A stretch of 37,676 nucleotides of DNA from a bacterium (lineage in GTDB: Bacteria > Patescibacteriota > Saccharimonadia > Saccharimonadales > UBA4665): assembly GCA_037134095.1 (NCBI GenBank), contig JBAXMV010000001.1, positions 1 through 37,676 of the forward strand. The letters run 5' to 3'. A model generated the notes under the pieces. The model did not search any database and had not been told where the DNA came from. It saw only the letters and a program-made list of their open reading frames with translations. Shown here in pieces: positions 7,697 to 26,656 of the stretch; the first letter of the stretch is position 1; each line of letters starts with the position of its first letter. A program made the translations under genes and the position numbers.

Positions 7697-8632
7697 TTAC
7701 TTTCTTTCTTGAGCCAGTATTCTTCTAAGGCCTCTAGGGAGCATCACGCTAGCAGCTTTTTTGTCTGCCAATACACTTGGGGTGTGATTCTTACTGTCGG
7801 CGATATATTCTTTAAAATCTTTGTAGGCAATCTGCATGTGCTGTTTCACTATATTTGGATCAAAATAACTATCGCTGCCAGCTCGGACGTGTTTTATTGG
7901 TATATTTATCCGTGACTCGCAATTATTTAGTGAAAAAAATTGGCTGCAAGTAATCCAATGAGTCCGAATATCATTACTGCGCCAAGCCTTAATTTCATAA
8001 TCTAAAGTATTTGTAATTTCATCATCAGAAGCTTCTATAAATTTCTGCTTAGAGTTTGGCATATTTTTATACAAATAACTGATAATGAATTTACGTAACA
8101 CGAAATGTCTCACAAAGAATGAAATAAATTTAGTACCTAATATACGAGTAAGGACCAAGAATGTTTGGCGTCTACGCAGGGAATACACAAAATCGTCTTT
8201 ATGAGTAAAACCCATCAAACTAACAACTAGTTCTACCTTTTTTTCCAGATCAGGATATTTCTGTAGCATTCTAGTCACCACAACAAATCCAAACGATATG
8301 CCCACAATTGTAATTTTTTTACGTTTATAGGTCAGCTTGATATACGAAGCCAGATAATCGGCATATCCATCTATATCAATAGCCTTATTTATCTTGTCAA
8401 AACTATCCATGCCTCCAAACCCAGGCATATCAGGCATAGTAACGTTGCCGTATGTACGTAAGTTTTCTACCAAGCCCCACCACCGCTCAAGAGTTGCATG
8501 ATGACCATATATAAGTAAAATCTCACGCTTCTTTTTATTGGAAGAATTGGCTTTTAGCATACGGCCTTCAAGACCGTTTATATATAAAGGCAATATGTGG
8601 TCAGTAGGACTAGTTAGTATTTTTTTTGGCAT
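7697..8632 (-). CDS. Alpha/beta-fold hydrolase (unknown substrate)
   Basis: It has the oxyanion region LLIYGHH and the nucleophile elbow GISFG. It is collinear over its full length with the paralogue at 25730..26656. Confidence 0.7.
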   Translation of the reverse strand: MPKKILTSPTDHILPLYINGLEGRMLKANSSNKKKREILLIYGHHATLERWWGLVENLRTYGNVTMPDMPGFGGMDSFDKINKAIDIDGYADYLASYIKLTYKRKKITIVGISFGFVVVTRMLQKYPDLEKKVELVVSLMGFTHKDDFVYSLRRRQTFLVLTRILGTKFISFFVRHFVLRKFIISYLYKNMPNSKQKFIEASDDEITNTLDYEIKAWRSNDIRTHWITCSQFFSLNNCESRINIPIKHVRAGSDSYFDPNIVKQHMQIAYKDFKEYIADSKNHTPSVLADKKAASVMLPRGLRRILAQERK

Positions 8633-8765: not shown

Positions 8766-8840
8766 TGGGGCGTGGCCAAGTGGTAAGGCACTGGTTTTTG
8801 GTACCAGCATTCGGGGGTTCGAATCCCTCCGCCCCAGCCA
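8766..8840 (+). tRNA. tRNA-Gln (anticodon UUG), CCA encoded
   Basis: I folded the cloverleaf by hand. The acceptor is TGGGGCG/CGCCCCA (U1:A72, discriminator G73, as in bacterial tRNA-Gln), with D arm GCCA-AGTGGTA-AGGC. The anticodon stem is CTGGT/ACCAG with loop TTTTGGT, the T arm is GGGGG-TTCGAAT-CCCTC, and the 3' CCA is encoded. Confidence 0.93.
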
Positions 8841-8841
8841 C

Positions 8842-8902
8842 GATTTGCACCTAACAAGAACCGATTGCATAATATGCTTACTCAATCTGTTAGGCACAAA
8901 TC
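8842..8902. repeat. Imperfect 15-bp inverted repeat (13/15) with a 31-nt spacer directly 3' of the tRNA
   Basis: GATTTGCACCTAACA (8842-8856) pairs with TGTTAGGCACAAATC (8888-8902), which differs from the reverse complement of the first arm at 2 adjacent positions. Confidence 0.6.
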
Positions 8903-8905
8903 TTA

Positions 8906-9133
8906 CTAAAGCATCAAACCGGCTGAATTGCCGGTTTTAAGGTCTGTTAGCAATTCATTAAATACTGGTCTACATCCAGATTCTTTGGCGGAGTGGCTTT
9001 CGTGTTTAGTTTCCACGACGTTAAGACCATCACGTTCAGCAAATGCCAACATCTCTTTTAACTGCGAATCGATCGACATCGCTTGCCGTTCATCTTACTC
9101 ACTCGAATTTCGAGCATAAAGACAATATTTTAC
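8906..9133 (-). pseudogene. Serine recombinase (resolvase/invertase catalytic domain) remnant: N-terminal fragment with an in-frame stop, C-terminally truncated
   Basis: My minus-strand translation is VKYCLYARNSSE*DERQAMSIDSQLKEMLAFAERDGLNVVETKHESHSAKESGCRPVFNELLTDLKTGNSAGLML*. The YARxSS...DRQ..SI.SQ....A...G......E..SA......RP.F..LL....G pattern is the catalytic-Ser region of serine recombinases. No ATG start remains, and the remaining DRLSR and DNA-binding parts are absent. Confidence 0.7.
8916..8938 (+). terminator. Candidate intrinsic terminator after tRNA-Gln
   Basis: A perfect 8-bp stem AAACCGGC/GCCGGTTT with a 6-nt loop TGAATT runs into TTTT. It lies inside the recombinase remnant, so it could instead be coincidental coding-sequence symmetry. 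Confidence 0.35.
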
Positions 9134-9200
9134 ATCTGTTATTAGTGGATTCATACAGGTACAAGGTACCGCAAAGAATTATTAAGCCTAGCTTTTACGT

Positions 9201-9230
9201 TTGAATGTTCGAGTAAATGTTACCTACAAT
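9201..9230 (+). promoter_or_regulatory. Candidate promoter for the defence operon (TTGAAT-18 nt-TACAAT)
   Basis: The -35 TTGAAT is at 9201-9206 and the -10 TACAAT at 9225-9230, about 37 nt upstream of the ATG at 9267. This is a sequence match only. Confidence 0.3.
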
Positions 9231-9266
9231 GGTTTTTATATCTATAAAAGGGTTATAATAACCAGT

Positions 9267-10721
9267 ATGAAAATTAAACAGAGTACGCCGTATGCACCTT
9301 TACTAATAGAATCCATGCGTTCTCTAGGTTATTCCTTTGATACGGCAATTGCTGATTTGATTGATAATAGTGTTAGCGCGCAAGCAAAAAACATTAGTAT
9401 TCTACTCGATCCTTCGGATGATCCACAGCTTATAATTTTTGATGACGGTAATGGTATGGGCTCCGAAACATTAGAAGAAGCACTGCGTTTTGGAAGTCGA
9501 GGGCCTAACGAAACCCGAAGTGAGTTCGATCTTGGTCGATTTGGACTTGGACTTAAATCCGCTTCACTATCTCAATGTAGACGACTTATTGTTGCAAGTA
9601 AGCATGACGGGGCTCTCTGTTGCTATTCTTGGGACTTAGATGAAGTCGAGAAGACAGGTGATTGGTCAGTATTAGAATATTCACAAGATGAAATTATTCA
9701 ACTTCCTAATATTAGCCTATTTGATTCAGTAGAATCAGGCACCTATGTCTTACTTCAGAATTTTGACAGAATTTCTGCTTCTTCTAATGACGTAAAGAAG
9801 ACCCTTGATACTCTAATCGAAACAGCGGAAGATCATTTATCATTAGTTTTTCATCGTATTATTTCAGAAGACAAAGTCAGTATTTTTATTAATGGCCGAC
9901 TTATCGAGCCGAAAGATCCCTTTTTAGAAAATCATAAGTCTACACAACGTTTACGAGAGCAAAGCATTGCTATAGACGATAAAATGATCACCCTACAACC
10001 CTACATTTTGCCTCACCGGAATAAGCTATCTAGAGAAGATTTAAAAAAAGTTGGAGGCGCAGACGACCTTCGGACAAATCAAGGCTTCTATATTTACCGT
10101 TGCAAACGACTTATCATCTGGGGAACTTGGTTTAGATTGCTGAGCAAAGAAGAGTTGAATAAATTGGCACGCGTAAAAGTTGATATACCCAATTCAATCG
10201 ACGAAATTTGGAGTATTGATGTGAAAAAAAGTACAGCAAATTTACCAGAGAAAATTAGAAAAAATCTATATGGGAGTATTAAGGAATCAGTTTTTGGTAG
10301 CAAGAAAGTAATTGAGTACCGAAGTAAGCTTCGTAGAGACGAAGATATTCATTACGTGTGGCAAAGACTTACGGAAAGAGATGGTAGCATAGCTTATTCA
10401 ATCAATCGAGATTTGCCTCAAGTTCAAATGTTAACCGAAAACTTAGACAAAAATGGTATGCGAGTGCTTGAAACGCTTTTGCAAAATGTAGAAAATAACT
10501 TTCCGGCAAGTAGCGTATATCTTGATGTAGCAGATGGTGATTTACATTCATCGGTTGAAGATATAAATAAGTTGGCGGATGATCTCGAGGCTCAGCTACT
10601 ATATGCAGAGCAGCTTGGGTTTACTCATGATGAGCTTCTAAGCGTTTTACTTAAAACGGAGCCATATTCAAGGAACGAACAGTTGATAAATATGTATTCT
10701 AGAAGTCAGGAAAATAAATGA
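9267..10721 (+). CDS. GHKL (Bergerat-fold) ATPase, MORC/paraMORC-like (HATPase_c_3 type)
   Basis: It has the N-box AIADLIDNSVSA, G1 box FDDGNGMG and G2 box GRFGLGLKSAS. I prefer the ATG at 9267 (MKIKQSTPYAPLLIESMRSLGY) over the listed TTG at 9201. The stop overlaps the next start (ATGA at 10718-10721). Confidence 0.8.
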   Translation: MKIKQSTPYAPLLIESMRSLGYSFDTAIADLIDNSVSAQAKNISILLDPSDDPQLIIFDDGNGMGSETLEEALRFGSRGPNETRSEFDLGRFGLGLKSASLSQCRRLIVASKHDGALCCYSWDLDEVEKTGDWSVLEYSQDEIIQLPNISLFDSVESGTYVLLQNFDRISASSNDVKKTLDTLIETAEDHLSLVFHRIISEDKVSIFINGRLIEPKDPFLENHKSTQRLREQSIAIDDKMITLQPYILPHRNKLSREDLKKVGGADDLRTNQGFYIYRCKRLIIWGTWFRLLSKEELNKLARVKVDIPNSIDEIWSIDVKKSTANLPEKIRKNLYGSIKESVFGSKKVIEYRSKLRRDEDIHYVWQRLTERDGSIAYSINRDLPQVQMLTENLDKNGMRVLETLLQNVENNFPASSVYLDVADGDLHSSVEDINKLADDLEAQLLYAEQLGFTHDELLSVLLKTEPYSRNEQLINMYSRSQENK

Positions 10722-13405
10722 GTAGTGAAATTAAGAAATTTAAAGACATTGTCGGCAATATGGTAGGCATTGGAAACTCAGACTTATTGATTAGTGATAC
10801 AGATGTAGATAAAGCCATCGAAGATTTGTATTCCATTCGAGATAAAATGGGGATCAAAATTTCTGAAGCTGAGAAGGTTAAAGCAAGGAATGAATTACTA
10901 GCTAATATTAAAGTTAGACTTGAACCTGGCGTAGCAATTGTACCCACCGACCATAAAAAATGGTTTGAAGAGAGTAAGAATGAAATTATTTTTGAATATT
11001 GGGATAGATTTAAGACATATCTAGCTCAAGATAAAGGCATTGAATTAAACGTTATCTCAAAAATGGACAAAGTCTCAGATCAAGTAGTCGATCTGCTTGG
11101 CGACCCTAGGCGCGAAGAAGAAGAGCAGCGTCGTGGCTTGATAATCGGAGATGTTCAATCAGGCAAAACAATAAATTATAGCGGTATTATCTGCAAAGCT
11201 GTTGATGCCGGTTTTCGTATTGTGATACTTATGACAGGAACTACTAATGATCTTCGCTCCCAGACACAAATACGTTTAGACGAAGCGTTTTTGGGTATTG
11301 ATACAAGGGCAGCTGCTAAAGGAGGTGGGCGAGTTTTAGTTGGAGCAGGAAAATACAATCCGATCCCAACACCGATCGCATTTACATCTGTAGAAAAAGA
11401 TTTTAGCATTAGTGCAGTTAGGCAAATGACAACATCTCTGTCCAAAAACGCAAACGATAAACCAATGTTGTTTGTTATTAAGAAAAATGTTTCGGTTCTT
11501 AAAAACCTTCTCGAATGGATGGAGTCCTCTGGCAAATATGGAGATCAAAAAATTGATAACTCAGTGCTTGTCATTGACGATGAGGCTGATTACGCTTCAA
11601 TTAATACGAAAATAGCAGGTTCGGAACGAAGCAAAACAAACTATTTGATTGAAAAAATACTAAATATGTACCGATTTGCTAGCTATTCAGGCTTTACTGC
11701 TACACCTTATGCAAACATTTTCATCGATCCCGAAACCGACGAAGAATTGAATACAGAAGGACTTTTTCCCAAAGATTATATTTACTCTCTGAATTCACCA
11801 GACACTTACATAGGTGCTAGAAATATTTTCCCCAAAAATGCCACTTACCATTTTATCCTTCGAGATATAGAAGATGGTGAAGAATTTTATCCGTCTAAAC
11901 ACAAAAAAGACGATGACTTTAGTGTCCTGTCGGAAAGTTTAAAAAAGGCTGTGCGTACTTTCTTAATAGCTAATGTCATAAGGGATTTACGAGGAGATAA
12001 GACTGAACACAGGTCGATGATGATCAATGTTACCCGTTTTATTAATACGCAGAAGCTCGTCAGGAAAGCAGTTGCAGACTATGTAGGAGATATAAAGAGA
12101 TCGATCAAAACTTACGCGTTTCTACCCCAAGAAAAAGCGTTACTAGACGAAGAGTTGAATTTACTTTCTAAAACTTTTGCAGACGAATATTCATCACTTG
12201 ATTTCTCATGGGAACAAATACAGGTAAATCTATTCGGGTCAGTTAATGAAATTGAGGTACTTGCTACCTATGGCGGCGGTGATGATCTCAATTATCACGA
12301 GAACCCAGATGGTCTCAGAGCAATAGTTGTAGGAGGGATGAGACTTTCTCGCGGTTTGACGCTTGAAGGTTTAATTGTAACTTATATTTATCGTAACTCA
12401 ATGGCATATGACACCCTAATGCAGATGGGGCGTTGGTTTGGCTACAGACCAAACTATGGTGATATTTGCCGAATTTGGATGGATAAAAATAGTCAAGACT
12501 GGTACGAATATATATCAGATGCAACGGACGAATTACGTGCAGAAGTAAAACGCATGCGTGATATTGAATCCACGCCTTTAGACTTTGGCCTTAAGGTACG
12601 TAATGACACTGATATGAAGCTTACGATCACCGCACGAAATAAAATGCGAACTGCCAAAGAGAAATCTATCAATGTTTCGCTAAGTAAGGCGTACATTGAA
12701 ACGGCTTTCATTCATAACGATGCGAAAAAGAATAAAGCAAATCTAGCTGCGGTAAGTAACTTGATCAACAGCACTAATTTTGATAAATCAGACAATCAAT
12801 ATATAGCAGAACACGTTGATAAGAACTTAATAGTAAGATTACTTGAAACTATTGATATGCCGCCTACAAACGTACAATTTGACCCACTCTCGGTTGCTAA
12901 TTTTATAGAGCAATATGCAGGTGACGAGCTCAATGATTGGAATGTGGCTATAAAATCAGGAGATCACAAAAAAACTTACACCCTGCCGAACGGAATTTCA
13001 ATCAACCCAAATGATCGTTTGTTTGAATTAATTAGAGAAGATTGTGTTGTAAGAATGAATCGACGCAGGCTAGGAAGCCAAGGAGATGCGAAAACAGGTC
13101 TTAATATTGCCCAATTAGAATTGGTAAAAGAGATTGTCACAAGTAATCCAAATCGTAATTCATCGAATATTAACGACAAGGACTACTTCGCAATCAGTCG
13201 AAAACCACTGCTCCAAGTTTATTTTATTCAGCCTCGTCAAAAAAGCGAAGACTGGGATCGCCTTGCAGAATTTGATTCAATCCCATTAATAGGTTTTAGC
13301 GTTGGTATACCACCACTTGGTGACATTAAAACAAGGAATATTAGATATCAGATTAACAAAATACATCAGGACTTTGGTGGCATCGAGGAATTTGAAGATG
13401 AGTAA
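10718..13405 (+). CDS. Z1 domain protein with SF2 helicase-like P-loop NTPase core
   Basis: It has Walker A GDVQSGKT, DEAD-like Walker B VIDDEADYAS, motif III GFTATPYAN and the Z1 signature LMQMGRWFGYR. It is 895 aa, typical for Z1 proteins in R-M-linked operons. Confidence 0.8.
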   Translation: MSSEIKKFKDIVGNMVGIGNSDLLISDTDVDKAIEDLYSIRDKMGIKISEAEKVKARNELLANIKVRLEPGVAIVPTDHKKWFEESKNEIIFEYWDRFKTYLAQDKGIELNVISKMDKVSDQVVDLLGDPRREEEEQRRGLIIGDVQSGKTINYSGIICKAVDAGFRIVILMTGTTNDLRSQTQIRLDEAFLGIDTRAAAKGGGRVLVGAGKYNPIPTPIAFTSVEKDFSISAVRQMTTSLSKNANDKPMLFVIKKNVSVLKNLLEWMESSGKYGDQKIDNSVLVIDDEADYASINTKIAGSERSKTNYLIEKILNMYRFASYSGFTATPYANIFIDPETDEELNTEGLFPKDYIYSLNSPDTYIGARNIFPKNATYHFILRDIEDGEEFYPSKHKKDDDFSVLSESLKKAVRTFLIANVIRDLRGDKTEHRSMMINVTRFINTQKLVRKAVADYVGDIKRSIKTYAFLPQEKALLDEELNLLSKTFADEYSSLDFSWEQIQVNLFGSVNEIEVLATYGGGDDLNYHENPDGLRAIVVGGMRLSRGLTLEGLIVTYIYRNSMAYDTLMQMGRWFGYRPNYGDICRIWMDKNSQDWYEYISDATDELRAEVKRMRDIESTPLDFGLKVRNDTDMKLTITARNKMRTAKEKSINVSLSKAYIETAFIHNDAKKNKANLAAVSNLINSTNFDKSDNQYIAEHVDKNLIVRLLETIDMPPTNVQFDPLSVANFIEQYAGDELNDWNVAIKSGDHKKTYTLPNGISINPNDRLFELIREDCVVRMNRRRLGSQGDAKTGLNIAQLELVKEIVTSNPNRNSSNINDKDYFAISRKPLLQVYFIQPRQKSEDWDRLAEFDSIPLIGFSVGIPPLGDIKTRNIRYQINKIHQDFGGIEEFEDE

Positions 13406-14315
13406 TCCTATTGATCGTATTAGAAAGCTTCTCGAAGACCACACTAATGAGTCCTACCAGAGATATAGTGCAGAACACCCCCTAGATATTTATCTGGGTA
13501 CTGACCAATATGGCCGCAAAAGTTTGGCATTAATAATTGACGCTCGACGAGAAAGAATTACTTCAACTAAAACCATTGATGCTCAATTTTTTAAACGTGA
13601 TGACGGACAGCTAATGCTAGTATTCTCACTTATTGACGATCAATTAAAAGACATCTTTTATAAGTTTTGTGAGGACATTATCGAGAGTACTAGATTAAGC
13701 AATCAGGTAGAAGGATTTGCACCTGTCGTGGATCGTTGGAACACATGGATTAATTTTTTTTCAAAATCAGTACTCCCACTTTCAGAAAATGAAGTACTAG
13801 GTTTAGTCGGAGAAATATATTTCTTGCAAAATGTGATGATTGAAAAGTATGGTAAAGAACTTGCGTTAGACTCTTATATAGGTACAGATCGGGCGCATAA
13901 AGATTTTGAGGTAAAAAACACTTGGTATGAAATCAAAACCATTCACAACGGAATTCGAGCCGTTAAAATAAGTTCAATAGAACAACTAGATGCACCTAAT
14001 CCAGGCAATCTTGAGATAATTACATTTGACCAAAGCACAGCAACGTATGAGGGTAATATTACCTTAAATAAACTGATATCAGGCTTCAGGAGTACCCTAG
14101 AACGCAAATGGCAGCTTCTGTTTGATGAAAAAATGCGTAGAGCAAGTTATATAGAAGATGAACGTTATGACGAATATAATTTTGTGTTTGTAAGAATTGA
14201 CGAGTATTCCGTAGCTGATGATTTTCCAAAACTAACCAAAGAATTACTTCCTATGGGCGTTACTAAAGCCAGTTACGAGATAGATATATCTGTAATCGAA
14301 AGGTTTCGAACGTAA
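13398..14315 (+). CDS. PD-(D/E)XK motif protein (DUF4420-like putative nuclease)
   Basis: It has the core GLVGEIYFL...HKDFEVKNTWYEIKT (E...D-x-E-x-K). I prefer the start at ATG 13398 (MSNPIDRIRKLL), which overlaps the Z1 stop by 8 nt. The listed 13302 start would lie deep inside the Z1 CDS. Confidence 0.65.
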   Translation: MSNPIDRIRKLLEDHTNESYQRYSAEHPLDIYLGTDQYGRKSLALIIDARRERITSTKTIDAQFFKRDDGQLMLVFSLIDDQLKDIFYKFCEDIIESTRLSNQVEGFAPVVDRWNTWINFFSKSVLPLSENEVLGLVGEIYFLQNVMIEKYGKELALDSYIGTDRAHKDFEVKNTWYEIKTIHNGIRAVKISSIEQLDAPNPGNLEIITFDQSTATYEGNITLNKLISGFRSTLERKWQLLFDEKMRRASYIEDERYDEYNFVFVRIDEYSVADDFPKLTKELLPMGVTKASYEIDISVIERFRT

Positions 14316-14317
14316 CT

Positions 14318-16414
14318 ATGAATTTAGAAGATTTTCGCACAGATTGGGTAAGTGACTTACGGGTTGCCGCAGAAGCTAATCAAAGTGATCCTCATAGTGA
14401 GTTTGTTATTGATGCAATTGATCAGCTTCAAGAAGCAGAAGAAGTTGAAAACGTTGAACTTGGTTACTTCGAGGGCATTGGACCAAATAGAACCAAACTA
14501 ATGGTCGACGGCTATGCTTTTGATGTCGTTGATAAATCATGTGTCTTACTTCTGAGCGATTTTTCGAACAGTGGCGATCTCCAAACGCTTACTCGAACTG
14601 ATATTGATCGACTATATAACAACATGCGTAATCTTTTAGAAGCTTCCCTTAATGGCTATATTGTAGCTAACAAATTCGAAGAGAGTAGCATTGGATATAC
14701 CTTTGCAGTTGAAGCTAAACGACTTTTCGATAATGGTGAAATATCCAAGTTTAGGTTTTACATTCTTACCGACAAAAAGCTCAGTGAAACGGTAAAGAAT
14801 ATCCGAAAGGAACCCATAAATGGTAAGAGCGTAGACTTAAATGCATGGGATATAAATCGTTTTTATCATTTATTTACTTCAACTCAAGGTAAGGAAGAAA
14901 TTGAAATAGACGCCTCGACATTGCTTGGCGGTGGGATCCCATATGTCAGTGCTACCAAAGGAGAAGATTACTCTGCTTACCTCGCTGTAGTTCCAGGGCA
15001 GTTTCTTGCAGATATTTATCTTGAGTATGGTTCTAGGCTTCTTGAAGGAAATGTACGTTCATTTTTGAGCATACGTGGCAAAGTTAACAAAGCAATTCGC
15101 GGTACTATCTTACAGCACCCAGATCTATTCTTTGCTTATAATAACGGAATTGCAGCGACAGCAACATCAATTGAAACTACTAACATAAATGGTAACCATG
15201 TAATTACGAAGATTAATGATATGCAGATAATAAACGGCGGTCAGACTACTGCCTCGATTGCCAATGCTGTAATTCAGGATAAAGCTTCTCTTGAAGATGT
15301 GTATATACCGATGAAGTTATCTGTATTGGATCACGATAAAGCAAAAGATATGATCCCCAATATCTCCCGTAGTGCCAACAGCCAAAACAAGGTAGATGAA
15401 GCAGACTTCTTTTCTAACCATCCTTATCACGTGCGTATTGAGGAGTACTCTAGGCGAATACTTGCTCCACCAGTAGATGGGAATCAGTATCAAACAGCGT
15501 GGTTCTATGAACGTGCACGCGGCCAGTATGTACAAGAGCAGATGAAACTTACACGTTCAGAACGAAAACGCTACCAACTCAAAAACCCTAAGGCACAACT
15601 ATTACGTAAAGTTGATGTTGCCAAGTTTATCAACTCATATGAACAGAAGCCACACATCGTAAGTCGAGGCGCTCAGTTCAATATGAGAAACTTCGCAGAT
15701 TCTATTGGTAAACAATGGAGCCCGACTGATCAGAATACTAGCTTTAACGAATACTATTACAAGAAGTTAATTTCACTAGCCATAATATTCAAGACTACTG
15801 AGAAGATCGTAACTGCTCAGCAATGGTATCAGGAAATTAAAGCATATCGTGCGAACATTGTTACATATAGCATAGCTGTTATTATGCATTCGATTGAAAA
15901 GAAATACCCCGGTAAAACGATAGATTTTTTGCGAATATGGAATACCCAGTCGATTAGTCCACAACTTGAAGCTCAGATAGTTGAAACAACTCGTGAGGTA
16001 TTTGACTTCATTACACGTGACGAGAGGCCAACATTAAATGTTACACAGTGGTGTAAGCAAGAAGACTGTTGGAAACGTGTACAGGAATACAATTTTACGA
16101 TACTCGACAACTTTGCTGAATCGCTGGTGAATGCAAGCGATGAGCAAGAAGAAAAAGCTATTGCTCAGAAAGAGCAGAAAGTAAGCAATCAGATCAGTGC
16201 CGAAATTGAGATTATAAATCTGGGAACAGACTACTGGAAAAAAGTGTTAGATTTTGGCCGGAATGATAGGCTACTCAGTGAAATGGAAGATGGCCTTTTG
16301 AATGTAGCTGCTACTTTTGACACTACTGGTCGAGTTCCCTCGGACAAACAAGCAAAATTGATTATGCAAATTCGAAATCGCTTATTTGATGAAGGCTTGT
16401 CACGAAACATTTAA
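14318..16414 (+). CDS. AIPR (abortive infection phage resistance) family protein
   Basis: It has the conserved AIPR core motifs FFAYNNGIAATA and MQIINGGQTTASI, is 698 aa long, and starts 2 nt after the preceding stop. Confidence 0.75.
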   Translation: MNLEDFRTDWVSDLRVAAEANQSDPHSEFVIDAIDQLQEAEEVENVELGYFEGIGPNRTKLMVDGYAFDVVDKSCVLLLSDFSNSGDLQTLTRTDIDRLYNNMRNLLEASLNGYIVANKFEESSIGYTFAVEAKRLFDNGEISKFRFYILTDKKLSETVKNIRKEPINGKSVDLNAWDINRFYHLFTSTQGKEEIEIDASTLLGGGIPYVSATKGEDYSAYLAVVPGQFLADIYLEYGSRLLEGNVRSFLSIRGKVNKAIRGTILQHPDLFFAYNNGIAATATSIETTNINGNHVITKINDMQIINGGQTTASIANAVIQDKASLEDVYIPMKLSVLDHDKAKDMIPNISRSANSQNKVDEADFFSNHPYHVRIEEYSRRILAPPVDGNQYQTAWFYERARGQYVQEQMKLTRSERKRYQLKNPKAQLLRKVDVAKFINSYEQKPHIVSRGAQFNMRNFADSIGKQWSPTDQNTSFNEYYYKKLISLAIIFKTTEKIVTAQQWYQEIKAYRANIVTYSIAVIMHSIEKKYPGKTIDFLRIWNTQSISPQLEAQIVETTREVFDFITRDERPTLNVTQWCKQEDCWKRVQEYNFTILDNFAESLVNASDEQEEKAIAQKEQKVSNQISAEIEIINLGTDYWKKVLDFGRNDRLLSEMEDGLLNVAATFDTTGRVPSDKQAKLIMQIRNRLFDEGLSRNI

Positions 16415-16455
16415 TAGAGGTAAACACAAGGGGTATTGTGCTATAGTTATAACAT

Positions 16456-17751
16456 ATGCTTAAAGTAATTGAAACGTTCAGTGGAATTGGTGCTCAGTCA
16501 AAAGCACTTAAGAATATTGGGTGTAACTTTAAGATTATCGGAACAGCAGACTGGGACATACATGCGATCATTGCATATGATCTTATTCATAATGGTAAAC
16601 AAGATTTATCTCTGTACGAAAAAGCTACTCGTGAAGAGATGCTACAAAAATTAAAGAAATATACCCTCAGTATTGACGGTAAAGTTGCAGCAGACTGGAA
16701 AAATGTCAAAATATTGAACATGAAAGTGCTAAAGAGGCTTTGCGCTGCCATTGATAGAACCAACAACTACGTAAGTGTAACCGATATGAACGGGGCACTC
16801 TTGCCTGTTGATATGGATGCACTAACTTATTCCTTCCCTTGCCAGGACCTATCTGTAGCTCATGCATGGCATGGTAAAACCGAGGGTATAGATCGAAGCG
16901 CAGCAAACCGATCTAGCCAACTGTGGGAAATTGAACGTATCTTAATGGAACGTAAAGCAAGCCCAAGACCAATGCCAAAATTTCTTCTAATGGAAAATGT
17001 ACCCAATATAATTTCTAGTTCTCATAGCAAAAATTTTGATGAATGGAAGCAATCACTTAACGATCTAGGCTACTATAATCGTTTCAATCTACTCATTTCA
17101 AACAATTTTGGCACACCTCAAATCCGTAAAAGAGCATATCTAATGAGCTTCTATACGGGTGGCGATAAAAAGCTGGAATCTAAGCTGGATAAGTATTTTG
17201 CAACTAATAACTTAGAAGATGTACGCAAAAAACCTACAGAACTCTCTAAGTTTTTGAGGCTTAATTACGAAGAGGGCTCCTTTAGACAAGAGGCCGACGA
17301 ATCAGTGCCTAACGACACCCCTTCACGTCGAGATATATTTATAAAGAGTGTTAAATTATTCGACGGCATAAGTTATTCTGGTTATGTTAAAACGATCACC
17401 ACAAAGCAAGATCGAAGACCTTGCTCCGGTGTCATTGTGTATGACAATAAGCGCGTTGGTAAGAGCACATACAGATACTTAACGGCAAGAGAATGTCTTT
17501 TATTAATGGGGTTCGAAGATAAAGATTATGAAGCACTAATTGAAGGTAATTTTAAGAAAAATATAACGACAGACTTTTTCACTACGAGAAAGATAGTCAA
17601 GATGGCTGGCAATAGCATCGTCGTACAAGTATTAGAAGAGGTGTTCAAGCAAATGATATATGTAGATGAGCACATCCTCTCTAAGGCTACCGCCGAGTTA
17701 CCGATCGAAGAGTTGCAATTAGTCGGAGAGCATAGCCTCGCTACAATCTAG
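16456..17751 (+). CDS. DNA (cytosine-5)-methyltransferase
   Basis: It has a full motif set: I ETFSGIGAQ, IV TYSFPCQDLS, VI LLMENVPN, VIII TPQIRKRAYLMS, IX YLTARECLLLMGF and X AGNSIVVQVLE. A long variable region (TRD) lies between VIII and IX. Confidence 0.92.
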   Translation: MLKVIETFSGIGAQSKALKNIGCNFKIIGTADWDIHAIIAYDLIHNGKQDLSLYEKATREEMLQKLKKYTLSIDGKVAADWKNVKILNMKVLKRLCAAIDRTNNYVSVTDMNGALLPVDMDALTYSFPCQDLSVAHAWHGKTEGIDRSAANRSSQLWEIERILMERKASPRPMPKFLLMENVPNIISSSHSKNFDEWKQSLNDLGYYNRFNLLISNNFGTPQIRKRAYLMSFYTGGDKKLESKLDKYFATNNLEDVRKKPTELSKFLRLNYEEGSFRQEADESVPNDTPSRRDIFIKSVKLFDGISYSGYVKTITTKQDRRPCSGVIVYDNKRVGKSTYRYLTARECLLLMGFEDKDYEALIEGNFKKNITTDFFTTRKIVKMAGNSIVVQVLEEVFKQMIYVDEHILSKATAELPIEELQLVGEHSLATI

Positions 17752-17769
17752 TGGCATGCTACATCTCCT

Positions 17770-18981
17770 ATGAGCATTTATGAATTTGATGACTTAGCGA
17801 ACGCTCCATTGATAATCGATGCGGTATATAAAAGTAAAAGTACACTATTTGGAGACGGTCCGCTTGGTAAATTATTACCGAAGATAGGCAATCAGGGTGG
17901 TTTTAGGTGTGTTAGAAGACAGGACAGAAGCGGTCAACTTGCGTACATTGTTTTGTACACCACTGGCACAGAAATAGATTGGCCTGATTCACTTGATGTG
18001 GAGACGGGTGTATGGCGTTATTTTGGCGACAACAGAACCCCAGGGAAGTCATTACACGACACTTCCGCTAAAGGTAATCTCTATTTGAGCGAGATTTTTG
18101 CTAAGATCGATTCGCCAACTGAAAGAGCTGATATACCTCCATTCCTAATTTTTCAGTGGGCCGGGAATCAATTTGACGCAAAGTTTCTTGGAGTAGCTGC
18201 GCCAGGTAACCCAAATATTCCACCAGATAAGGAATTGAATGCTATATGGAGATCAAAGAAAGGAAGTAGATTTCAGAATTATGAAGCGTACTTTTCAGTA
18301 TTAGATACTGGCCGCGAAGAAATATCAAAAGAGTGGCTCAAACTCCTGATAAGTGATCATGAAAACAGTCTTTCATTTGCCCCTACGGCATGGAAGCAAT
18401 TTATAAAATTTGGTAGACAGGGCGTTAAGCCTCTTTTATCACCAAGAGGCTCCGAAATTCCGAACAAAGAACAACAATTGCCTCAAGATCCAAGTGAAAT
18501 AAAATTATTGCAGAAGATTCGAGACTATTACAAGGACAATCCATTCGATTTTGAGCTATGCTCTACAAAGATTGTCCAGATGATGGACAATAATTTTGGA
18601 CTGTTTGAGTTAACTCGTCCATGGCGTGATGGAGGTAGAGATGCTATAGGAAAATATAGAGTTGGTAATAATCATAGTCCCTTGTTAGTTGAATTCGCAC
18701 TTGAAGCTAAATGTTACTCGATGGACAATTCAGTTGGAGTCAAACCAATGTCGAGGTTAATCTCTAGGCTAAGGTATCGTCAGTTTGGTGTTTTAGTGAC
18801 TACTAGCTACGTACACTCACAAGCATATAAGGAGATTGTTGAGGACGGTCACCCCGTACTGATAATAAATGCGGCTGATATTGCTAAAATTCTTCGAAGT
18901 CAAGGCATCAACCATCATAACGTCGACGTATGGCTCAGCCAAATTGGGCAAAACAACATAGAAAATGAGAAAGTCGATTAG
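17770..18981 (+). CDS. Restriction endonuclease with a C-terminal Mrr-type PD-(D/E)XK domain and a putative SRA-like N-terminal reader domain
   Basis: The C-terminus GGRDAIGKY...LVEFALEAKCY...FGVLVTTSYVHSQAYKEI...PVLIINAADIAKIL matches the Mrr_cat pattern (D...ExK plus G.lvTTs.fs). The N-terminal AYIVLYTTGTEIDWPDSLDVETGVWRYFGDNR...HDTSAKGNLYL is patterned like the SRA core (AYSxVLxGGYxDDxDxGxxxxYTGxGG...DQKLxxxNxAL). Confidence 0.65.
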   Translation: MSIYEFDDLANAPLIIDAVYKSKSTLFGDGPLGKLLPKIGNQGGFRCVRRQDRSGQLAYIVLYTTGTEIDWPDSLDVETGVWRYFGDNRTPGKSLHDTSAKGNLYLSEIFAKIDSPTERADIPPFLIFQWAGNQFDAKFLGVAAPGNPNIPPDKELNAIWRSKKGSRFQNYEAYFSVLDTGREEISKEWLKLLISDHENSLSFAPTAWKQFIKFGRQGVKPLLSPRGSEIPNKEQQLPQDPSEIKLLQKIRDYYKDNPFDFELCSTKIVQMMDNNFGLFELTRPWRDGGRDAIGKYRVGNNHSPLLVEFALEAKCYSMDNSVGVKPMSRLISRLRYRQFGVLVTTSYVHSQAYKEIVEDGHPVLIINAADIAKILRSQGINHHNVDVWLSQIGQNNIENEKVD

Positions 18982-18983
18982 TT

Positions 18984-20339
18984 ATGACCATCTCCAAAAC
19001 AGATTACATGATGTTCCTCAAGCAACCTGCATGGTTGTGGCTAAAAAAGAATGACCCAAAAAAATTGCCACCAATTGATGAAAACACCCAGGCTTTATTT
19101 GATGCAGGTCATCAATTTGAACCTTATGCTGAATCATTATTTCCTGAAGGCGCTACGATTGGTTTTTCTGATTACAAAGAATATCTATCATTGCCGCAGA
19201 GAACACAAGATGCAATTAATAAGGGTGAACCTGTTTTATTTCAACCTCGTTTTGAATGGCTAGAGTTTACTTGCATATGTGACATAGTTAGCTTTGTAGT
19301 TGATAATGAAGTCGATCTCTATGAGATAAAAGCCAGCACTAGCGCCAAAGTCGAACACGAATTCGATCTTGCATTCCAGACTGCGGTGCTTGAAGGAGCG
19401 GGTCTGAAGGTACGAAACATTTTTGTTATTCACGTCAATAACCAGTACGTTCGAAATGGTCCGGTTGAGGCAGACAAGATAACAATCATCCAGGATGTAA
19501 CGAAAAAGGTTCGTAGCAGGGATGAAGTTACTGCCAAAAATATGTCGCTTGCTGTAGCTGCAGCTAAGCAGAAAACCATGCCCGATCCTTCCCCGACGCT
19601 TGCCAAGCTGGGCTCAAAAAACGATTGGCTTCAAGTTTATGAAAATATTGTGCCTCAAGCACGTATTGAATACCCTGCCAATACTAGACCTACGATCAAG
19701 CACGAATATATAAAAGCATTCTTGGAAGATCTTACGTATCCACTTTACTTTCTTGACTATGAAACCATGAAGGGACTTATCCCTTACTTTGATGGACATC
19801 GACCATACCAACAAGTTCCGTTCCAGTATTCGCTCCACATTATTCAGGAGCTTGGAGGAGATGTTGAGCATCGTGAATTCTTACACCGCGAAAATTCAGA
19901 TCCCTCACGATCACTAGTTGAGAAACTAATATATGATGTAGGCAAAGAAGGCACTATCTTAGTTTGGTACGAACAATTTGAAAAGAGCCGTAACAGCGAG
20001 CTTGGTGAAATGTACCCAGAATATATTCAAGATATGGAATCTATAAATGACAGAGTTGTTGATCTAATCATTCCATTTAAGAAGAAATGGTACGATGATC
20101 CCCGCTTTGAAGGCAGTGCAAGTATTAAACATGTACTGCCAGTACTATGCCCAGACTTAAGCTATAAATCATTAGGGATACAAGAGGGCGGATCCGCACA
20201 ACGTCTTTGGATGGAAGCTGTGCTAGACGATAAACGCTCTGATCAAAAGGAAACAATACTCAGTGACCTAATTGAATACTGCAAACTTGATACATTAGCC
20301 ATGGTAGAAATATTCAAAAAGCTCTTGGAGGTAACATGA
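18984..20339 (+). CDS. DUF2779 domain protein (N-terminal RecB/Cas4-like PD-(D/E)XK nuclease fused to a C-terminal RNase H-fold/DEDD-like domain)
   Basis: The N-terminus ISKTDYMMFLKQPAWLWL and VDLYEIKAST (ExK) mark the nuclease. The DUF2779 signature is YPLYFLDYETM...PYQQVPFQYSLHI, and a late acidic motif YCKLDTLAMVEIF follows. It starts 2 nt after the REase stop. Confidence 0.7.
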   Translation: MTISKTDYMMFLKQPAWLWLKKNDPKKLPPIDENTQALFDAGHQFEPYAESLFPEGATIGFSDYKEYLSLPQRTQDAINKGEPVLFQPRFEWLEFTCICDIVSFVVDNEVDLYEIKASTSAKVEHEFDLAFQTAVLEGAGLKVRNIFVIHVNNQYVRNGPVEADKITIIQDVTKKVRSRDEVTAKNMSLAVAAAKQKTMPDPSPTLAKLGSKNDWLQVYENIVPQARIEYPANTRPTIKHEYIKAFLEDLTYPLYFLDYETMKGLIPYFDGHRPYQQVPFQYSLHIIQELGGDVEHREFLHRENSDPSRSLVEKLIYDVGKEGTILVWYEQFEKSRNSELGEMYPEYIQDMESINDRVVDLIIPFKKKWYDDPRFEGSASIKHVLPVLCPDLSYKSLGIQEGGSAQRLWMEAVLDDKRSDQKETILSDLIEYCKLDTLAMVEIFKKLLEVT

Positions 20340-20566
20340 GCGACAGCACAATATGTAAAAATTGCGGGCATGACGAGTCAAAATGTAATCCAGATGAGAC
20401 ATATCGCTGAGCAAAAGAACTGATTGGATTTAAGAAAACAGCATCTGCTGCACTATTACAGCGCGATCTTAAAATAAGCTACGCCATGTCCGCTGAGATA
20501 CTAGAAAAGCTAGAGTCCTAAGGACTAATTGGCCCAGCAATCGAATTGACGGCAAAGCAACAATGA
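20336..20566 (+). pseudogene. Decayed small gene: CxxC Zn-ribbon plus FtsK-gamma-like winged helix, with two in-frame stops
   Basis: A single frame from ATG 20336 (ATGA overlap with the DUF2779 stop) reads MSDSTICKNCGHDESKCNPDETYR*AKELIGFKKTASAALLQRDLKISYAMSAEILEKLES*GLIGPAIELTAKQQ*. The segment ASxxLLQRxLxIxYxxAxxIxxxLExxGxIGP is the FtsK gamma (KOPS-reader) pattern. It is interrupted by TGA at 20408 and TAA at 20519. Confidence 0.6.
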
Positions 20567-20604
20567 ATGGTTAGCGAGGCTTTAACAGCAAAATTGCAGA
20601 TAGA

Positions 20605-20913
20605 ATGAATTTAACTATCGAGTGCATTCGTCTCTATTATCTTGCAAAGGATAGCCCACTATTTAGTACTCTGAAACGTCATGGCAACTTTTTTGATATA
20701 TTTCAGGATTTCAGGGGCTTCGATGAGTTCTTTTTGCTACAAGATGCTGTATCCGAAGACTTTCAATCAGTAAATATCGCTGTGCCTTTTGATGAATTTA
20801 TGTCACCGCCAATTCCAAAAAACCTAGATGAGTATAGGAATTATCTGGATTCGACGGCAGAATTTGTGATAAAAAGAGGTCAAAGAATTGAGAAATATGT
20901 AAAGAGTGCATAA
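20605..20913 (+). CDS. Hypothetical protein (102 aa), possibly a 5'-truncated remnant
   Basis: The ORF carries no motif I recognise. It is acidic and aromatic-rich (FFDIFQDFRGFDEFFLLQDAV), has no SD, and its frame opens only 10 codons upstream of the ATG. Confidence 0.35.
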   Translation: MNLTIECIRLYYLAKDSPLFSTLKRHGNFFDIFQDFRGFDEFFLLQDAVSEDFQSVNIAVPFDEFMSPPIPKNLDEYRNYLDSTAEFVIKRGQRIEKYVKSA

Positions 20914-20985
20914 GCCTTTTTACGGTTTCTCAAATGTATCATTTACACTTTAAAATGTTCTAGACCAGTACGCTCAGCCAGTTTT

Positions 20986-21015
20986 AAACTCGTCAGTTGG
21001 ACGAGTTTTTTATTT
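20986..21015 (+). terminator. Rho-independent terminator at the right end of the island (may also serve the convergent lipase gene weakly)
   Basis: A 9-bp stem AAACTCGTC/GACGAGTTT with loop AGTTG is followed by TTTATTT. It lies between convergent genes ending at 20913 (+) and 21025 (-). Confidence 0.6.
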
Positions 21016-21024
21016 GACGTGGAT

Positions 21025-22278
21025 TTAAGAAGCGGGTATTGGTAGTGGCTGGTTGCAGGTGTTGGGATTGATTTGTTGGGTGAAACGATCGTTGATCCAG
21101 TTGATTACGTTGGGAGAGATTACAGATGGAATTTGCTGGTGCGATACATTGTTAATCCATAAGGTGTTGATGTTTGATCCGGCTGCACAAGCTCTAGATA
21201 TGTATTGTGCTGTGGTAGCCGGCAAAACTACTTGATCGCTCAAGCTTTCACTTATCTGAATTGGAATTGTTTTAGGCAGTACTGGCGCCGTTTGCATTTT
21301 TATAATATCTTGCCAACGTGAATTATTTAAGAAATCTGAAGTGAAGAATCTCTGACCAGTTTTTTGTCGAACTATTCCGCTCACGGAAGACTCAGCTATA
21401 CATTGTCGGCTCAGCTTCACATATTGATCCTGTACCTTACTGTTGATTATATTGTAGGTACTTAGCGTAGGATAGGCAGTCTTCCAACCTGCAACAAGTT
21501 GCGGTCCAATTACCCAGCTGGCTAGAGTGTCGTATTGTGCATTTAATAAGGATTCAAGTTGAGCTGCAGGTGCAGATGCTGATGTTCCTACAAGTTGGTA
21601 TTCTGGCATATATTCAGAAGCATAAAGTGAACTGAAAAGTGCCGAATGACCTCCTTGAGAATGACCCCAAATTGCATACTGTTTGCTGCTATTATTATTC
21701 GCAATATAGCTTACTGCGCGTACGCTATTTAATACATCATGAGCCTCAGATTTACCAACCAAATACTCGCTTATTCCTGGCGTGCCTAAACCTGCATAAT
21801 CAGTTGCGGTCACTATCCAGCCTTTAGCCAGCATACTACTAATCCAAGGTAGTCTCGATGATGATACTGGTTGTTCCTGCCTAGATGGAGCACAGTTATC
21901 GCCTCCGCCCAATGTGCCATGAGCCCAAGCTACCACTGGATGGGGAGAAGCAGCAATCGTGGCCGGCACAAAAATCATTCCTGAAGTAAATGTAATATCA
22001 TCATTGGCTTTTTGGGTCCTATAAAGTACACGGTAAGCCGTACCATTTTCGATGCCTGTTTGAATAATCTCTTTGCGGAGTATTTCCCCTAAAGGACCTT
22101 GCGTCTGTAATCCGGTAGTATCATAAAATCCGCTTATGGATTTTTGAAACTTATCTATCTTGTATGAATTCCAGAAATATACGCCTGCACTAAATACAAT
22201 AATAGCTAAAATAAATATTAGTACGCGTTTGAACATTTTATGCACATGTTTTTTATTATTTTGCTTATGCATACTCAT
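21025..22278 (-). CDS. Membrane-anchored alpha/beta hydrolase, secretory-lipase (LIP)-like
   Basis: It has an N-terminal TM anchor (VLIFILAIIVFSAGVYFW) and the nucleophile motif WGHSQGGHSALF. The 417-aa size is typical of LIP-family proteins. Confidence 0.6.
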   Translation of the reverse strand: MSMHKQNNKKHVHKMFKRVLIFILAIIVFSAGVYFWNSYKIDKFQKSISGFYDTTGLQTQGPLGEILRKEIIQTGIENGTAYRVLYRTQKANDDITFTSGMIFVPATIAASPHPVVAWAHGTLGGGDNCAPSRQEQPVSSSRLPWISSMLAKGWIVTATDYAGLGTPGISEYLVGKSEAHDVLNSVRAVSYIANNNSSKQYAIWGHSQGGHSALFSSLYASEYMPEYQLVGTSASAPAAQLESLLNAQYDTLASWVIGPQLVAGWKTAYPTLSTYNIINSKVQDQYVKLSRQCIAESSVSGIVRQKTGQRFFTSDFLNNSRWQDIIKMQTAPVLPKTIPIQISESLSDQVVLPATTAQYISRACAAGSNINTLWINNVSHQQIPSVISPNVINWINDRFTQQINPNTCNQPLPIPAS

Positions 22279-25729: not shown

Positions 25730-26656
25730 TTATAACTTACTCAAACGATCGCGTAAATCCTGAGGCAAAATTTCGGCAGCCGCTTTCTCGTCGGCGATTA
25801 CGCTAGGAGCATGCATTTTTGCATCTATCTTAATGTGCAGTACATCTTTGTATATTTCCGATAAATGCTTCTCCACTTTGTTGTTGTCAAAAAAGTGATC
25901 TTCACTGACACCAACGTGCCATACAGGTAGATCCACTTTGACCTTGCTATTTTTGAGGGTAAGTATGGCTACTGTTGTGTAACACCAAGTACGAACATCA
26001 TTGATATGCCACAAGGTAACCTCGGCAGCTTTAATGGCATCAATCTCTTGCTTGGATCCGGCTTCCTTAAATTTATTTTTAGCATTATGCGTTTTACCAT
26101 AAAATGCATTCAAAAATAGTGGGTGAAGGGCGATATGCCTAAATATTATAGAAGGTACTTTATGAGACAAAATACGTGTCGCTTGTATATACACTTGTTT
26201 GCGCACAGGGCTTAGAGTGAAGTCTTCTTGATTTACAAATCCAACAATACTAACAACTATCTTAATCTGTTTGTGCAATTCGGGGTGTCTTTGGAGCATT
26301 CGAGTACTCACTGCAAAGCCAAAGCTCATACCGGCTATCGTAATCTCTTCGTCTTTGAAGTGTTTTTTTATAAATTTGGCTAAGTAATCAGCCATGTTAT
26401 CTATATTCGGCTTTTTGCCAATTTTGTAGAAACTATCCATTCCGCCGAAACCTGGTAAATCTGGCATCGTAACAGAACCATAATTACTAAGAGCCAGCAT
26501 CAATCCCCACCATCGTTCGATACTTGAATGATGGCCATAAATAAAAAGAAGTTTATTTTTAGAAGCACTCTTTGCTGGTAGATCCAACACTCTACCGTTC
26601 ATTCCATCAATATTTATATTAGAAATGTATTTTTCGGGGATATCAATATTATCCAT
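25730..26656 (-). CDS. Alpha/beta-fold hydrolase, paralogue of 7697..8632
   Basis: It has LFIYGHH, ERWWGL, VTMPDLPGFGGMDSF and the nucleophile elbow GMSFG. It is collinear with the other copy, with roughly 40% identity by eye. Confidence 0.7.
   Translation of the reverse strand: MDNIDIPEKYISNINIDGMNGRVLDLPAKSASKNKLLFIYGHHSSIERWWGLMLALSNYGSVTMPDLPGFGGMDSFYKIGKKPNIDNMADYLAKFIKKHFKDEEITIAGMSFGFAVSTRMLQRHPELHKQIKIVVSIVGFVNQEDFTLSPVRKQVYIQATRILSHKVPSIIFRHIALHPLFLNAFYGKTHNAKNKFKEAGSKQEIDAIKAAEVTLWHINDVRTWCYTTVAILTLKNSKVKVDLPVWHVGVSEDHFFDNNKVEKHLSEIYKDVLHIKIDAKMHAPSVIADEKAAAEILPQDLRDRLSKL

Follow-up and report, generated by a model that had tools for sequence, protein, structure and literature searches.

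The window analyzed here, 37,676 nt of Saccharibacteria DNA, is the entire contig C1 (JBAXMV010000001.1) of a 0.74-Mb genome that is 91% complete and whose proteins have relatives labeled Candidatus Saccharibacteria/Saccharimonadales. Immediately past the 3′ end of its tRNA-Gln(UUG) gene lies an island of 12,140 bp (window 8841–20980, borders ± 2–3 nt when set against the empty site of genome G001). Within the island, seven intact, putative defense genes stand between the remnant of a large serine recombinase (LSR) gene and the remnants of two further genes, one for a small Zn-ribbon/FtsK-gamma protein and one for a DUF6994 protein (Table 1). We conclude that the island is very probably the immobilized remnant of a Saccharibacteria integrative element, inserted by an LSR at the 3′ end of tRNA-Gln and since decayed. 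Throughout, G-numbers denote genomes and L-numbers denote loci or contigs, with L038, L039, L040, and L043 being the loci of G016, G089, G094, and G104, respectively. The same-genus comparison rests on one genome, G001.

Table 1. Features of the tRNA-Gln island and its flanks, in window coordinates
Feature	Position	Strand	Evidence or remark
Host alpha/beta hydrolase gene, left flank	7697–8632	-	Pfam Abhydrolase_1
tRNA-Gln(UUG), CCA encoded	8766–8840	+	ARAGORN; sole tRNA in the window
Junction repeat CAGCCA, left copy; attB/attL core	8835–8840		Last 6 nt of the tRNA
Element-side arm of attL	8841–8938	.	84% identity over 174 nt (tRNA included) to the tRNA-proximal end of the G094 element
Left internal deletion junction	8939–8948	.	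blastn blocks 8766–8938 and 8949–9191 against L040 18339–18168 and 15359–15119
LSR remnant	8949–9154	-	Reads toward the tRNA; ATG at 9154 aligned with intact LSR starts
MzaB-like MORC/GHKL ATPase	9267–10721	+	HATPase_c_3 3e-34; PADLOC MzaB 6e-70
MzaC-like Z1 helicase-like protein	10718–13405	+	Pfam Z1 1.8e-70; PADLOC MzaC 2.9e-114
MzaD-like DUF4420 PD-(D/E)XK protein	13302–14315	+	DUF4420 8e-50; PADLOC MzaD 6e-19
MzaE-like AIPR protein	14318–16414	+	AIPR 1.3e-98, AIPR_N 1.4e-30; PADLOC MzaE 2e-70
C5 cytosine DNA methyltransferase (Dcm)	16456–17751	+	DNA_methylase 7.7e-47; PADLOC orphan/type II methyltransferase models; 84% to the G057 ortholog
AspBHI/MspJI-family methyl-directed endonuclease	17770–18981	+	RE_AspBHI_N 1.2e-48, Mrr_cat 8e-12; PADLOC mREase_II 1e-141, full length
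DUF2779 protein	18984–20339	+	DUF2779 4.7e-42
Pseudogene, free-standing Zn-ribbon/FtsK-gamma protein	20336–20538	+	FtsK_gamma 46.7 bits (cut-off 30.6)
Right internal deletion junction	20529–20538	.	blastn match to L070–L075 ends at 20538; blastn match to L082 begins at 20529
DUF6994 gene, 3′ part, codons ~105–232	20530–20913	+	Pfam DUF6994 positions 133–226 of 226
Right terminal non-coding arm	20914–20980	.	Ends in TGTTCTAGACCA-GTAC-GCTCAGCCA (20956–20980)
Junction repeat CAGCCA, right copy	20975–20980		
Host hairpin terminator of tRNA-Gln, 9-bp stem, outside the island	20986–21008	+	Terminator scan
Host LIP-family lipase gene, right flank	21025–22278	-	Pfam LIP 1.1e-30; 95% identical in G001, next to the tRNA

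Empty site, borders, and decayed ends

Contig C15 of G001 carries the uninterrupted locus. The left flank matches at 94% identity over 1,144 nt, through the last base of the tRNA, and the right flank at 95% identity over 1,285 nt, both on one strand and with 36 nt between the two BLAST matches. Read directly, G001 runs ...CCCCAGCCA, then AAATTTAAACTCG and the hairpin, giving the order tRNA-Gln, terminator, lipase gene; the tRNA-Gln sequence itself is identical in the two genomes. The left junction in the window reads ...CCCCAGCCA|CGATTTGCACC... and the right junction reads ...ACGCTCAGCCA|GTTTTAAACTCG..., and no match to the recombinase piece, Z1/MzaC, DUF2779, or DUF6994 was found in G001. An initial annotation, made from the letters of the window alone, had begun the block at the 3′ end of tRNA-Gln between a hydrolase and a lipase-like gene, which ARAGORN and Pfam confirmed, and had suggested looking for an empty site, which G001 supplies on one contig. 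It had also closed the block with a hairpin terminator. That terminator exists, and because it stands directly 3′ of the tRNA in the G001 empty site it belongs to the host and lies outside the island; the insertion has displaced the tRNA's own terminator by 12 kb. Orthologs of the left-flank hydrolase adjoin tRNA-Gln in G001, G021, G137, G073, and L077, making this gene a conserved neighbor in several genera. We also note a second alpha/beta hydrolase in the window (25730–26656), which is 44% identical to the tRNA-Gln-linked one and is the paralog matched by the hydrolase of the L082 contig.

Both borders carry the 6-bp sequence CAGCCA, a right-hand copy of the tRNA 3′ end that the initial annotation had missed. 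No repeat longer than 6 bp was found at the island borders, and so short a repeat is what a serine recombinase would be expected to leave. The far ends of six elements were also searched for long direct repeats of the tRNA 3′ end, and none was found (best 10–12/16, chance level). We also discarded the notion that the P arm is an imperfect copy of the tRNA 3′ end, as its 14/25 match to the last 25 nt (GTTC.A..CC ... CAGCCA) was not statistically compelling outside the 6-bp core.

At the left end, the serine-recombinase N-terminal fragment with an in-frame stop that had been described was recovered, with the correction that it lies on the minus strand, from 9154 down to ~8949, pointing toward the tRNA. 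It comprises ~70–80 N-terminal codons of the catalytic domain and keeps the YARxSSE catalytic motif, with an in-frame TAA at 9097–9095 replacing a Gln codon. Read through this stop, the fragment scored 33.3 bits against Pfam Resolvase (cut-off 23.3; profile positions 3–63 of 145), and it was 57–75% identical to the N-termini of intact 419–436-aa LSRs in a five-sequence alignment, with up to 80% identity (G089) in the genome search. The Recombinase and Zn-ribbon domains present in full-length relatives are absent, and on these domain matches we read the remnant as a pseudogene of the LSR family. No other Resolvase-domain gene scored above the cut-off in the 91%-complete genome; the block would therefore now be fixed, unless a related element supplies a recombinase in trans.

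Two blocks at this end match the G094 locus, one spanning window 8766–8938 at 84% identity and the other spanning 8949–9191, the 5′ end of the recombinase gene, at 75%. The blocks are ~10 nt apart in the window versus 2,808 nt apart in G094, which indicates an internal deletion in which the att arm itself survived. The missing ~2.8 kb corresponds in G094 to the C-terminal ~345 codons of the recombinase and to open reading frames (ORFs) of 382 and 125 aa. Identity within the arm starts immediately past CAGCCA, and L077 has a left arm of the same type (ATTGCACC...GACCG). A hairpin followed by T4, at ~8920–8942 in the arm, now stands 3′ of the tRNA in place of the displaced terminator.

The right end shows a comparable loss. 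The FtsK-gamma frame (20336–20566, 77 codons) overlaps the DUF2779 stop by ATGA and specifies a Cys/His knuckle and a winged helix. Alignment with relatives placed two nonsense codons in it, Arg25 to TGA (20408–20410) and Glu62 to TAA (20519–20521), bringing the island's total to three; family homology ends past residue 68, with the last ~10 codons replaced. Both this remnant and the recombinase remnant scored above their family cut-offs, a check that the initial annotation had proposed. From 20529 to 20980 (452 nt), the window is instead 91% identical to L082, covering codons ~105–232 of a 232-aa DUF6994 gene and 67 nt downstream, and the DUF6994 part shares 88% protein identity with the 232-aa P0121. 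The ATG-initiated ORF at 20605–20913, taken at first for an orphan, is real but lies within this remainder as the C-terminal part of the DUF6994 gene, whose homology runs from ~20530. The backbone lost in this second deletion amounts to roughly 2.5–7 kb in relatives.

The match to L082 and to G147 breaks off precisely at CAGCCA, within a right-end motif of the form TTCTAGACCA-N4-GCTCAGCCA or, with its optional T, (T)TCTAGACCA-N4-GCTCAGCCA. We found this motif at seven independent right ends (the window, L082, G147, L077, L069, G089, and G066), with unrelated downstream DNA in each. A pattern scan of 151 family genomes matched 4 of them, and the reversed control gave 0 matches. The motif of L077, just past the ParB-methylase gene and 11.9 kb away from tRNA-Gln, closes an intact element at the same locus; L069 has the order DUF2779, TerL, TerS, ParB-methylase, ~3.9 kb, motif. 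Searches with the right-end DNA in five genomes with intact LSRs and with DUF6994 in IMG/VR returned no match, and the 20 kb upstream on the L082 contig held neither an LSR nor a tRNA. G147 was considered as a further element, its motif and tRNA-Gln being 8.4 kb apart, but the intervening genes look host-like and it was not counted. Separately, a doubled heptamer, GTCTCA(T/A)(T/A)TGTCTCATTTAC, is common to the right ends of the window (20925–20950), L082, L077, L069, and G147, ~30–55 nt upstream of the junction, and could be a candidate protein-binding site.

The defense cargo

The stretch between the two decayed ends (9201/9267 to 20339) is taken up by seven intact ORFs, all in one direction and overlapping or lying ≤41 nt apart, as the initial annotation had reported. 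All seven encode products of ortholog-like lengths. The MzaB-like ORF opens at TTG 9201, and ortholog starts match ATG 9267; its product is 83% identical to the G057 ortholog. The true start of the MzaD-like gene is probably downstream of TTG 13302. A search for MzaA found no ORF between the recombinase remnant and MzaB, and no MzaA model for Dcm was among the best 25 PADLOC families listed. DUF2779 was found in 12 of the 151 family genomes and is a shuffled addition on related islands, where the FtsK-gamma gene comes after it.

The nearest Mza-Dcm-AspBHI block is that of G057, at 60–88% amino-acid identity, where it occupies a tRNA-Asn island with a different, 545-aa LSR. L078 carries Mza and a different Dcm, together with DUF2779 and FtsK-gamma. 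From these gene arrangements, the cargo appears to be modular. Compared with orthologs, the proportion of nonsynonymous differences (pN) was 0.07–0.26 and that of synonymous differences (pS) was saturated at 0.75–0.85, so that, for the selection on the cargo proposed in the initial annotation, pN/pS reports long-term constraint only and nothing on recent selection. Presumably, the cargo still acts as an anti-phage defense.

We note in addition that the adjacency of Dcm and the AspBHI-like gene (window 16456–18981) is kept in G057 (L041 15749–18261), at 84% and 88% amino-acid identity, respectively. The pairing of Dcm with a nuclease dependent on 5-methylcytosine (5mC) looks self-harmful unless the specificities of the two enzymes differ.

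Related elements at tRNA genes

Intact relatives of the recombinase are compact LSRs of ~420–450 aa with Resolvase, Recombinase, and Zn_ribbon_recom domains. They occur at the same hydrolase/tRNA-Gln(UUG) locus in sister genera, namely in G137, where the gene is 100 nt from the tRNA, and in G021, G073, and the metagenome contig L077. Others are found at tRNA-Gln(CUG) in G016, G094, and G104, and more distant LSRs (~50% identical) at tRNA-Asn, tRNA-Ser, or tRNA-Met. At every tRNA-linked locus tabulated, the LSR converges on the tRNA 3′ end. A common frame holds across 31 loci: tRNA 3′ end, LSR, a variable slot of 2–11 kb, the small terminase subunit TerS (in some cases preceded by the large subunit, TerL), and a ParB-methylase. 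The full order of LSR, 2–11-kb slot, TerL, TerS, and ParB-methylase was seen in 10 loci. When the frame is intact, CAGCCA is followed by a short arm and an LSR directed toward the tRNA, the slot operons read away from the LSR, and a terminal arm beyond the backbone closes with the right-end motif. The slot contents include type I restriction-modification (RM) systems (L076, L094), a type III RM system (L100), PLD-SNF2 with an MmeI-like enzyme (L077, L079, L109), and Mza (G094 and the window).

DUF2779 and a small Zn-ribbon/FtsK-gamma gene often form the end of the slot. We collected 136 FtsK-gamma protein clusters of 71–96 aa (66–87% identity), mostly from Saccharibacteria/Patescibacteria metagenomes, in which PF09397 was the only domain; none of the 136 has an FtsK_SpoIIIE motor domain. 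The Zn-ribbon/FtsK-gamma gene broken by two stops is thus as initially annotated, and its assignment to an FtsK/SpoIIIE-type translocase module is ruled out by the length and domain content of these relatives, which form a motorless, free-standing family, typically of 77–80 aa. In eight of nine genomic contexts, the gene is the last of a co-directional defense operon: it follows DUF2779 in L070, L071, L078, and L079, frequently overlapping it by the same ATGA, and elsewhere follows HsdS (L076), an MmeI-like enzyme (L077), or a YgjP-like gene (L074). The FtsK-gamma-ended operons of L076, L077, and L079 start divergently beside an LSR of the same clade, and beyond FtsK-gamma, on the opposite strand, these loci carry a 134–150-aa helix-turn-helix (HTH) protein and a ParB-N6/N4-methylase fusion. 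Matches of the FtsK-gamma query to 150 family genomes were dominated by chromosomal FtsK, with no close small copy.

PHROGs matched the HTH protein to TerS (4e-8) and a ~500-aa neighbor at other loci to TerL (1e-71 to 1e-80), and IMG/VR viral contigs carry ~50%-identical LSR relatives beside ParB-methylase, TerS, and TerL. No capsid, portal, or tail family was recognized in the relatives, the PHROG search beside TerL returning only families of unknown function, although blanks in PHROG and Pfam are weak evidence in this phylum. From their gene content, the elements are phage-related, perhaps as defective prophages or as satellites, and they are not conjugative.

Individual relatives offered further observations. 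L038 (G016) and L043 (G104) have a second tRNA T-arm-like stretch (GGTTCGAATCCCATTT) in the element arm ~85–100 nt past tRNA-Gln, which may be a relic of earlier integration. An 18-kb interval of G089 (C1:456978–475057) from tRNA-Gln(CUG) to the end motif contains two different LSR genes; the one closest to the window remnant points away from the tRNA, and the arrangement looks like nested or tandem elements. An HTH_XRE-SocA/Panacea-domain gene lies beside the LSR on the intact elements L077 (1500–2195) and L079 (1–681) and could be a backbone regulator or a toxin-antitoxin-type module. In L074/L075 (8001–10725), from a Saccharibacteria contig, FtsK-gamma is the last gene of a type I RM/Shedu operon, and only ~290 nt separate it from the full-length chromosomal ftsK downstream. 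The metagenome contig L070 (9333–16237) places a DUF2779/FtsK-gamma-ended defense operon beside type IV secretion genes (VirB4-like, TraG-like, TraC-like, PrgI, and TrbL/pilin).

Origin of the island and comparison with known systems

The initial annotation had proposed that a mobile element delivered the cargo and then lost its mobility functions, and the empty site, the remnants, and the intact LSRs at the same locus all support this. A plausible sequence of events can be outlined. Strand exchange by the LSR would have taken place inside or adjacent to CAGCCA, with the end of the tRNA serving as attB and the two arms making up attP, and would have placed the element between the tRNA and its terminator. 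A nonsense codon would then have arisen in the LSR, followed by the ~2.8-kb deletion that took the rest of this gene and two small genes. A second deletion would have joined the 3′ end of FtsK-gamma to the middle of the terminal DUF6994 gene, with loss of the terminase and ParB-methylase backbone, and two nonsense codons would have arisen in the FtsK-gamma gene. The island retains both att arms and the seven intact cargo genes.

Several points weigh against so simple a history. No single relative shows all parts together: DUF6994 is missing from L077, which has the LSR, FtsK-gamma, TerS, ParB-methylase, and the motif, and an LSR is not recognizable in L082 or G147, which do have DUF6994 and the motif. 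The nearest relatives also differ by module (G094 for the left arm, G057 for Mza-Dcm-AspBHI, L070 and L078 for DUF2779/FtsK-gamma, and L082 for DUF6994); the island is therefore a mosaic that could stem from more than one event. The junction repeat is only 6 bp long. Composition, which the initial annotation had proposed as a test, does not mark the island either: its GC is 0.386, next to 0.384 in the remaining contig and 0.419 genome-wide, and 3 of 28 chunks reach its tetranucleotide distance of z = 2.1; deviant composition is not required of an island if its donor is a related lineage. Finally, a single empty site cannot separate insertion here from precise excision in G001. As a separate observation, the whole contig (window 1–37676), at GC 0.384–0.386, is below the genome mean of 0.419 and at the low edge of 12-kb chunks (minimum 0.381).

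Precise excision is the basis of a different history for the same object, in which the element was ancestral to both species and was later lost from the G001 lineage. LSR-mediated excision restores attB exactly and would give the clean site of G001, and decay to the extent of two deletions and three nonsense codons suggests that the element has been resident for a long time. Two genomes cannot polarize the event, however, and G018 and G022, which have no LSR match, also have the hydrolase/tRNA-Gln locus, so that empty is the common state. We consider ancestral presence rather unlikely.

The mosaic could also reflect accretion, whereby two related elements lay in tandem at tRNA-Gln until a deletion between them, after which the left end of one remained, together with the DUF6994- and motif-bearing right end of the other. 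Consistent with this, the two ends have different nearest relatives, G094 on the left and L082 on the right, the latter at 91% nucleotide identity when housekeeping flanks are at ~70–74%; G089 carries two LSR genes in the 18 kb that separate tRNA-Gln(CUG) from the motif; and tandem islands at one att site are documented among the serine-recombinase ssrA islands of Dehalococcoides (PMC3146451). Yet L077 unites both arm types on one intact 11.9-kb element, so one element suffices, and the interior of the island showed no further att copy, neither the motif nor a CAGCCA-flanked arm. Accretion thus seems improbable to us.

Far less credible is a chromosomal defense hotspot built in place by homologous exchange of flanks, with the recombinase and other remnants as incidental debris: host-like composition and mosaic cargo would fit, but each border coincides with a conserved element arm also present at other loci and beside intact LSRs, and the borders fall exactly at the tRNA end. 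We rejected the remnant of an integrative conjugative element (ICE), with the FtsK-like gene as its DNA translocase, since despite the FtsK_gamma match and the related L070 cargo adjoining type IV secretion genes, the intact relatives of the gene are 71–96 aa with no FtsK_SpoIIIE motor; a Pfam scan of all island ORFs found no relaxase, coupling protein/FtsK-type motor, or type IV secretion gene, the LSR frames examined likewise had no relaxase, coupling protein, or type IV secretion gene, and the backbone is TerS/TerL/ParB-methylase, so that the ICE link drawn in the initial annotation gives way to an element family with terminase rather than transfer genes. Equally rejected was a split integrase, with attP inside the recombinase gene and its halves parked at attL and attR to be rebuilt on excision; the N-terminal piece does read toward the junction, but tblastn with a full-length LSR gave no match at the right end, the 98 nt between remnant and tRNA are a non-coding arm that G094 also has, 1.8 kb away from an LSR that is not split, and the remnant has a nonsense codon.

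Returning to the reading of a decayed, LSR-inserted element, we tentatively extend it, with a little less than even confidence, to its family. The island may be one decayed member of an undescribed family of Saccharibacteria/Patescibacteria elements that target tRNA genes, use a serine integrase, and bear terminase genes; such elements may be phage satellites. In them, the stretch from LSR to TerL/TerS would serve as a dedicated anti-phage hotspot, with a free-standing FtsK-gamma DNA reader at its close. With its att arms kept, this copy could still be excised and moved in trans by a related incoming element. A text search of an available literature collection on Saccharibacteria prophages, serine recombinases, and defense returned nothing describing this element family.

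Tyrosine integrases are the enzymes usually held responsible for insertion at tRNA 3′ ends, and here this would be the work of a clade of ~430-aa serine recombinases. Such elements appear to be the main vehicles moving restriction and other defense systems between Saccharibacteria, whose genomes are <1 Mb and mostly not known to carry CRISPR. The conserved arms provide a concrete putative attB/attP pair, a possible genetic tool for a phylum in which there is hardly any genetics. The window copy may also be viewed as a natural experiment, its defense cargo being intact after the loss of every backbone gene.

Several components have known counterparts. Of the mzaABCDE anti-phage system (cited in PMC9523054), MzaB, C, D, and E have equivalents here, all in order and with strong PADLOC matches, whereas the island has no MzaA and instead a C5 methyltransferase after MzaE. 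The window arrangement matches the methyltransferase-linked “type II” Z1/DUF4420/AIPR/MORC cluster (PMC9523054). About half of MspJI-family enzymes adjoin a 5mC methyltransferase, a habit that is still unexplained (PMC2938202). The putative enzyme here shares with the MspJI/AspBHI family an AspBHI-type N-terminal reader, an Mrr catalytic domain, and a 5mC methyltransferase neighbor (PMC2938202, PMC3946040), and differs in its position inside a larger Mza operon. As for FtsK gamma, the domain by which the chromosomal translocase reads FtsK-orienting polar sequences (KOPS), the winged-helix gamma fold was matched above the Pfam cut-off. Unlike chromosomal FtsK, the window protein is free-standing, with an N-terminal Cys/His knuckle and no motor, and is ~40% identical to the gamma domain of the host FtsK.

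As a whole, a decayed genomic island is a known kind of object, and a gutted island at a tRNA gene is ordinary. Cis-mobilizable elements (CIMEs) are derivatives of ICEs or integrative and mobilizable elements that have no recombination module and are flanked by both att arms. The island resembles them in having both att arms and no working recombinase, and differs in that its parent element would not have been conjugative. With phage satellites and temperate phages that have defense hotspots (P4/P2 hotspots and islands of the phage-inducible chromosomal island type; PMC9122126, PMC10085698), the element family shares an integrase at one end, a fixed slot for interchangeable anti-phage systems, and a small size of ~12–20 kb. 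The relatives examined carry TerS, sometimes TerL, and no recognized capsid or tail genes, as a satellite of ~7–20 kb might, PHROG blanks being weak evidence in this phylum. The differences are an LSR in place of a tyrosine integrase and a Saccharibacteria episymbiont as host, and the window copy is without the whole backbone, TerS included.

Small serine recombinases have been linked to defense genes in other phyla (preprint 10.1101/2025.10.07.681051). The ssrA islands of Dehalococcoides, with their serine recombinase DsiB, also occupy the 3′ end of a gene for a small stable RNA, and they likewise have a reverse-strand integration module at attL, a ParB-domain backbone gene, a short conserved motif upstream of the repeat, and decayed or fixed copies (PMC3146451). 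In those islands, the target is tmRNA, the repeat is 20 bp, the cargo is reductive dehalogenases, and there are no terminase genes, whereas here the target is tRNA-Gln, the repeat is 6 bp, and the cargo is defense. Against this background, the variant features are the targeting of a tRNA 3′ end by an LSR with an overlap of 6 bp, a backbone of terminase and ParB-methylase genes, and a defense slot bounded by the LSR and a free-standing FtsK-gamma gene.

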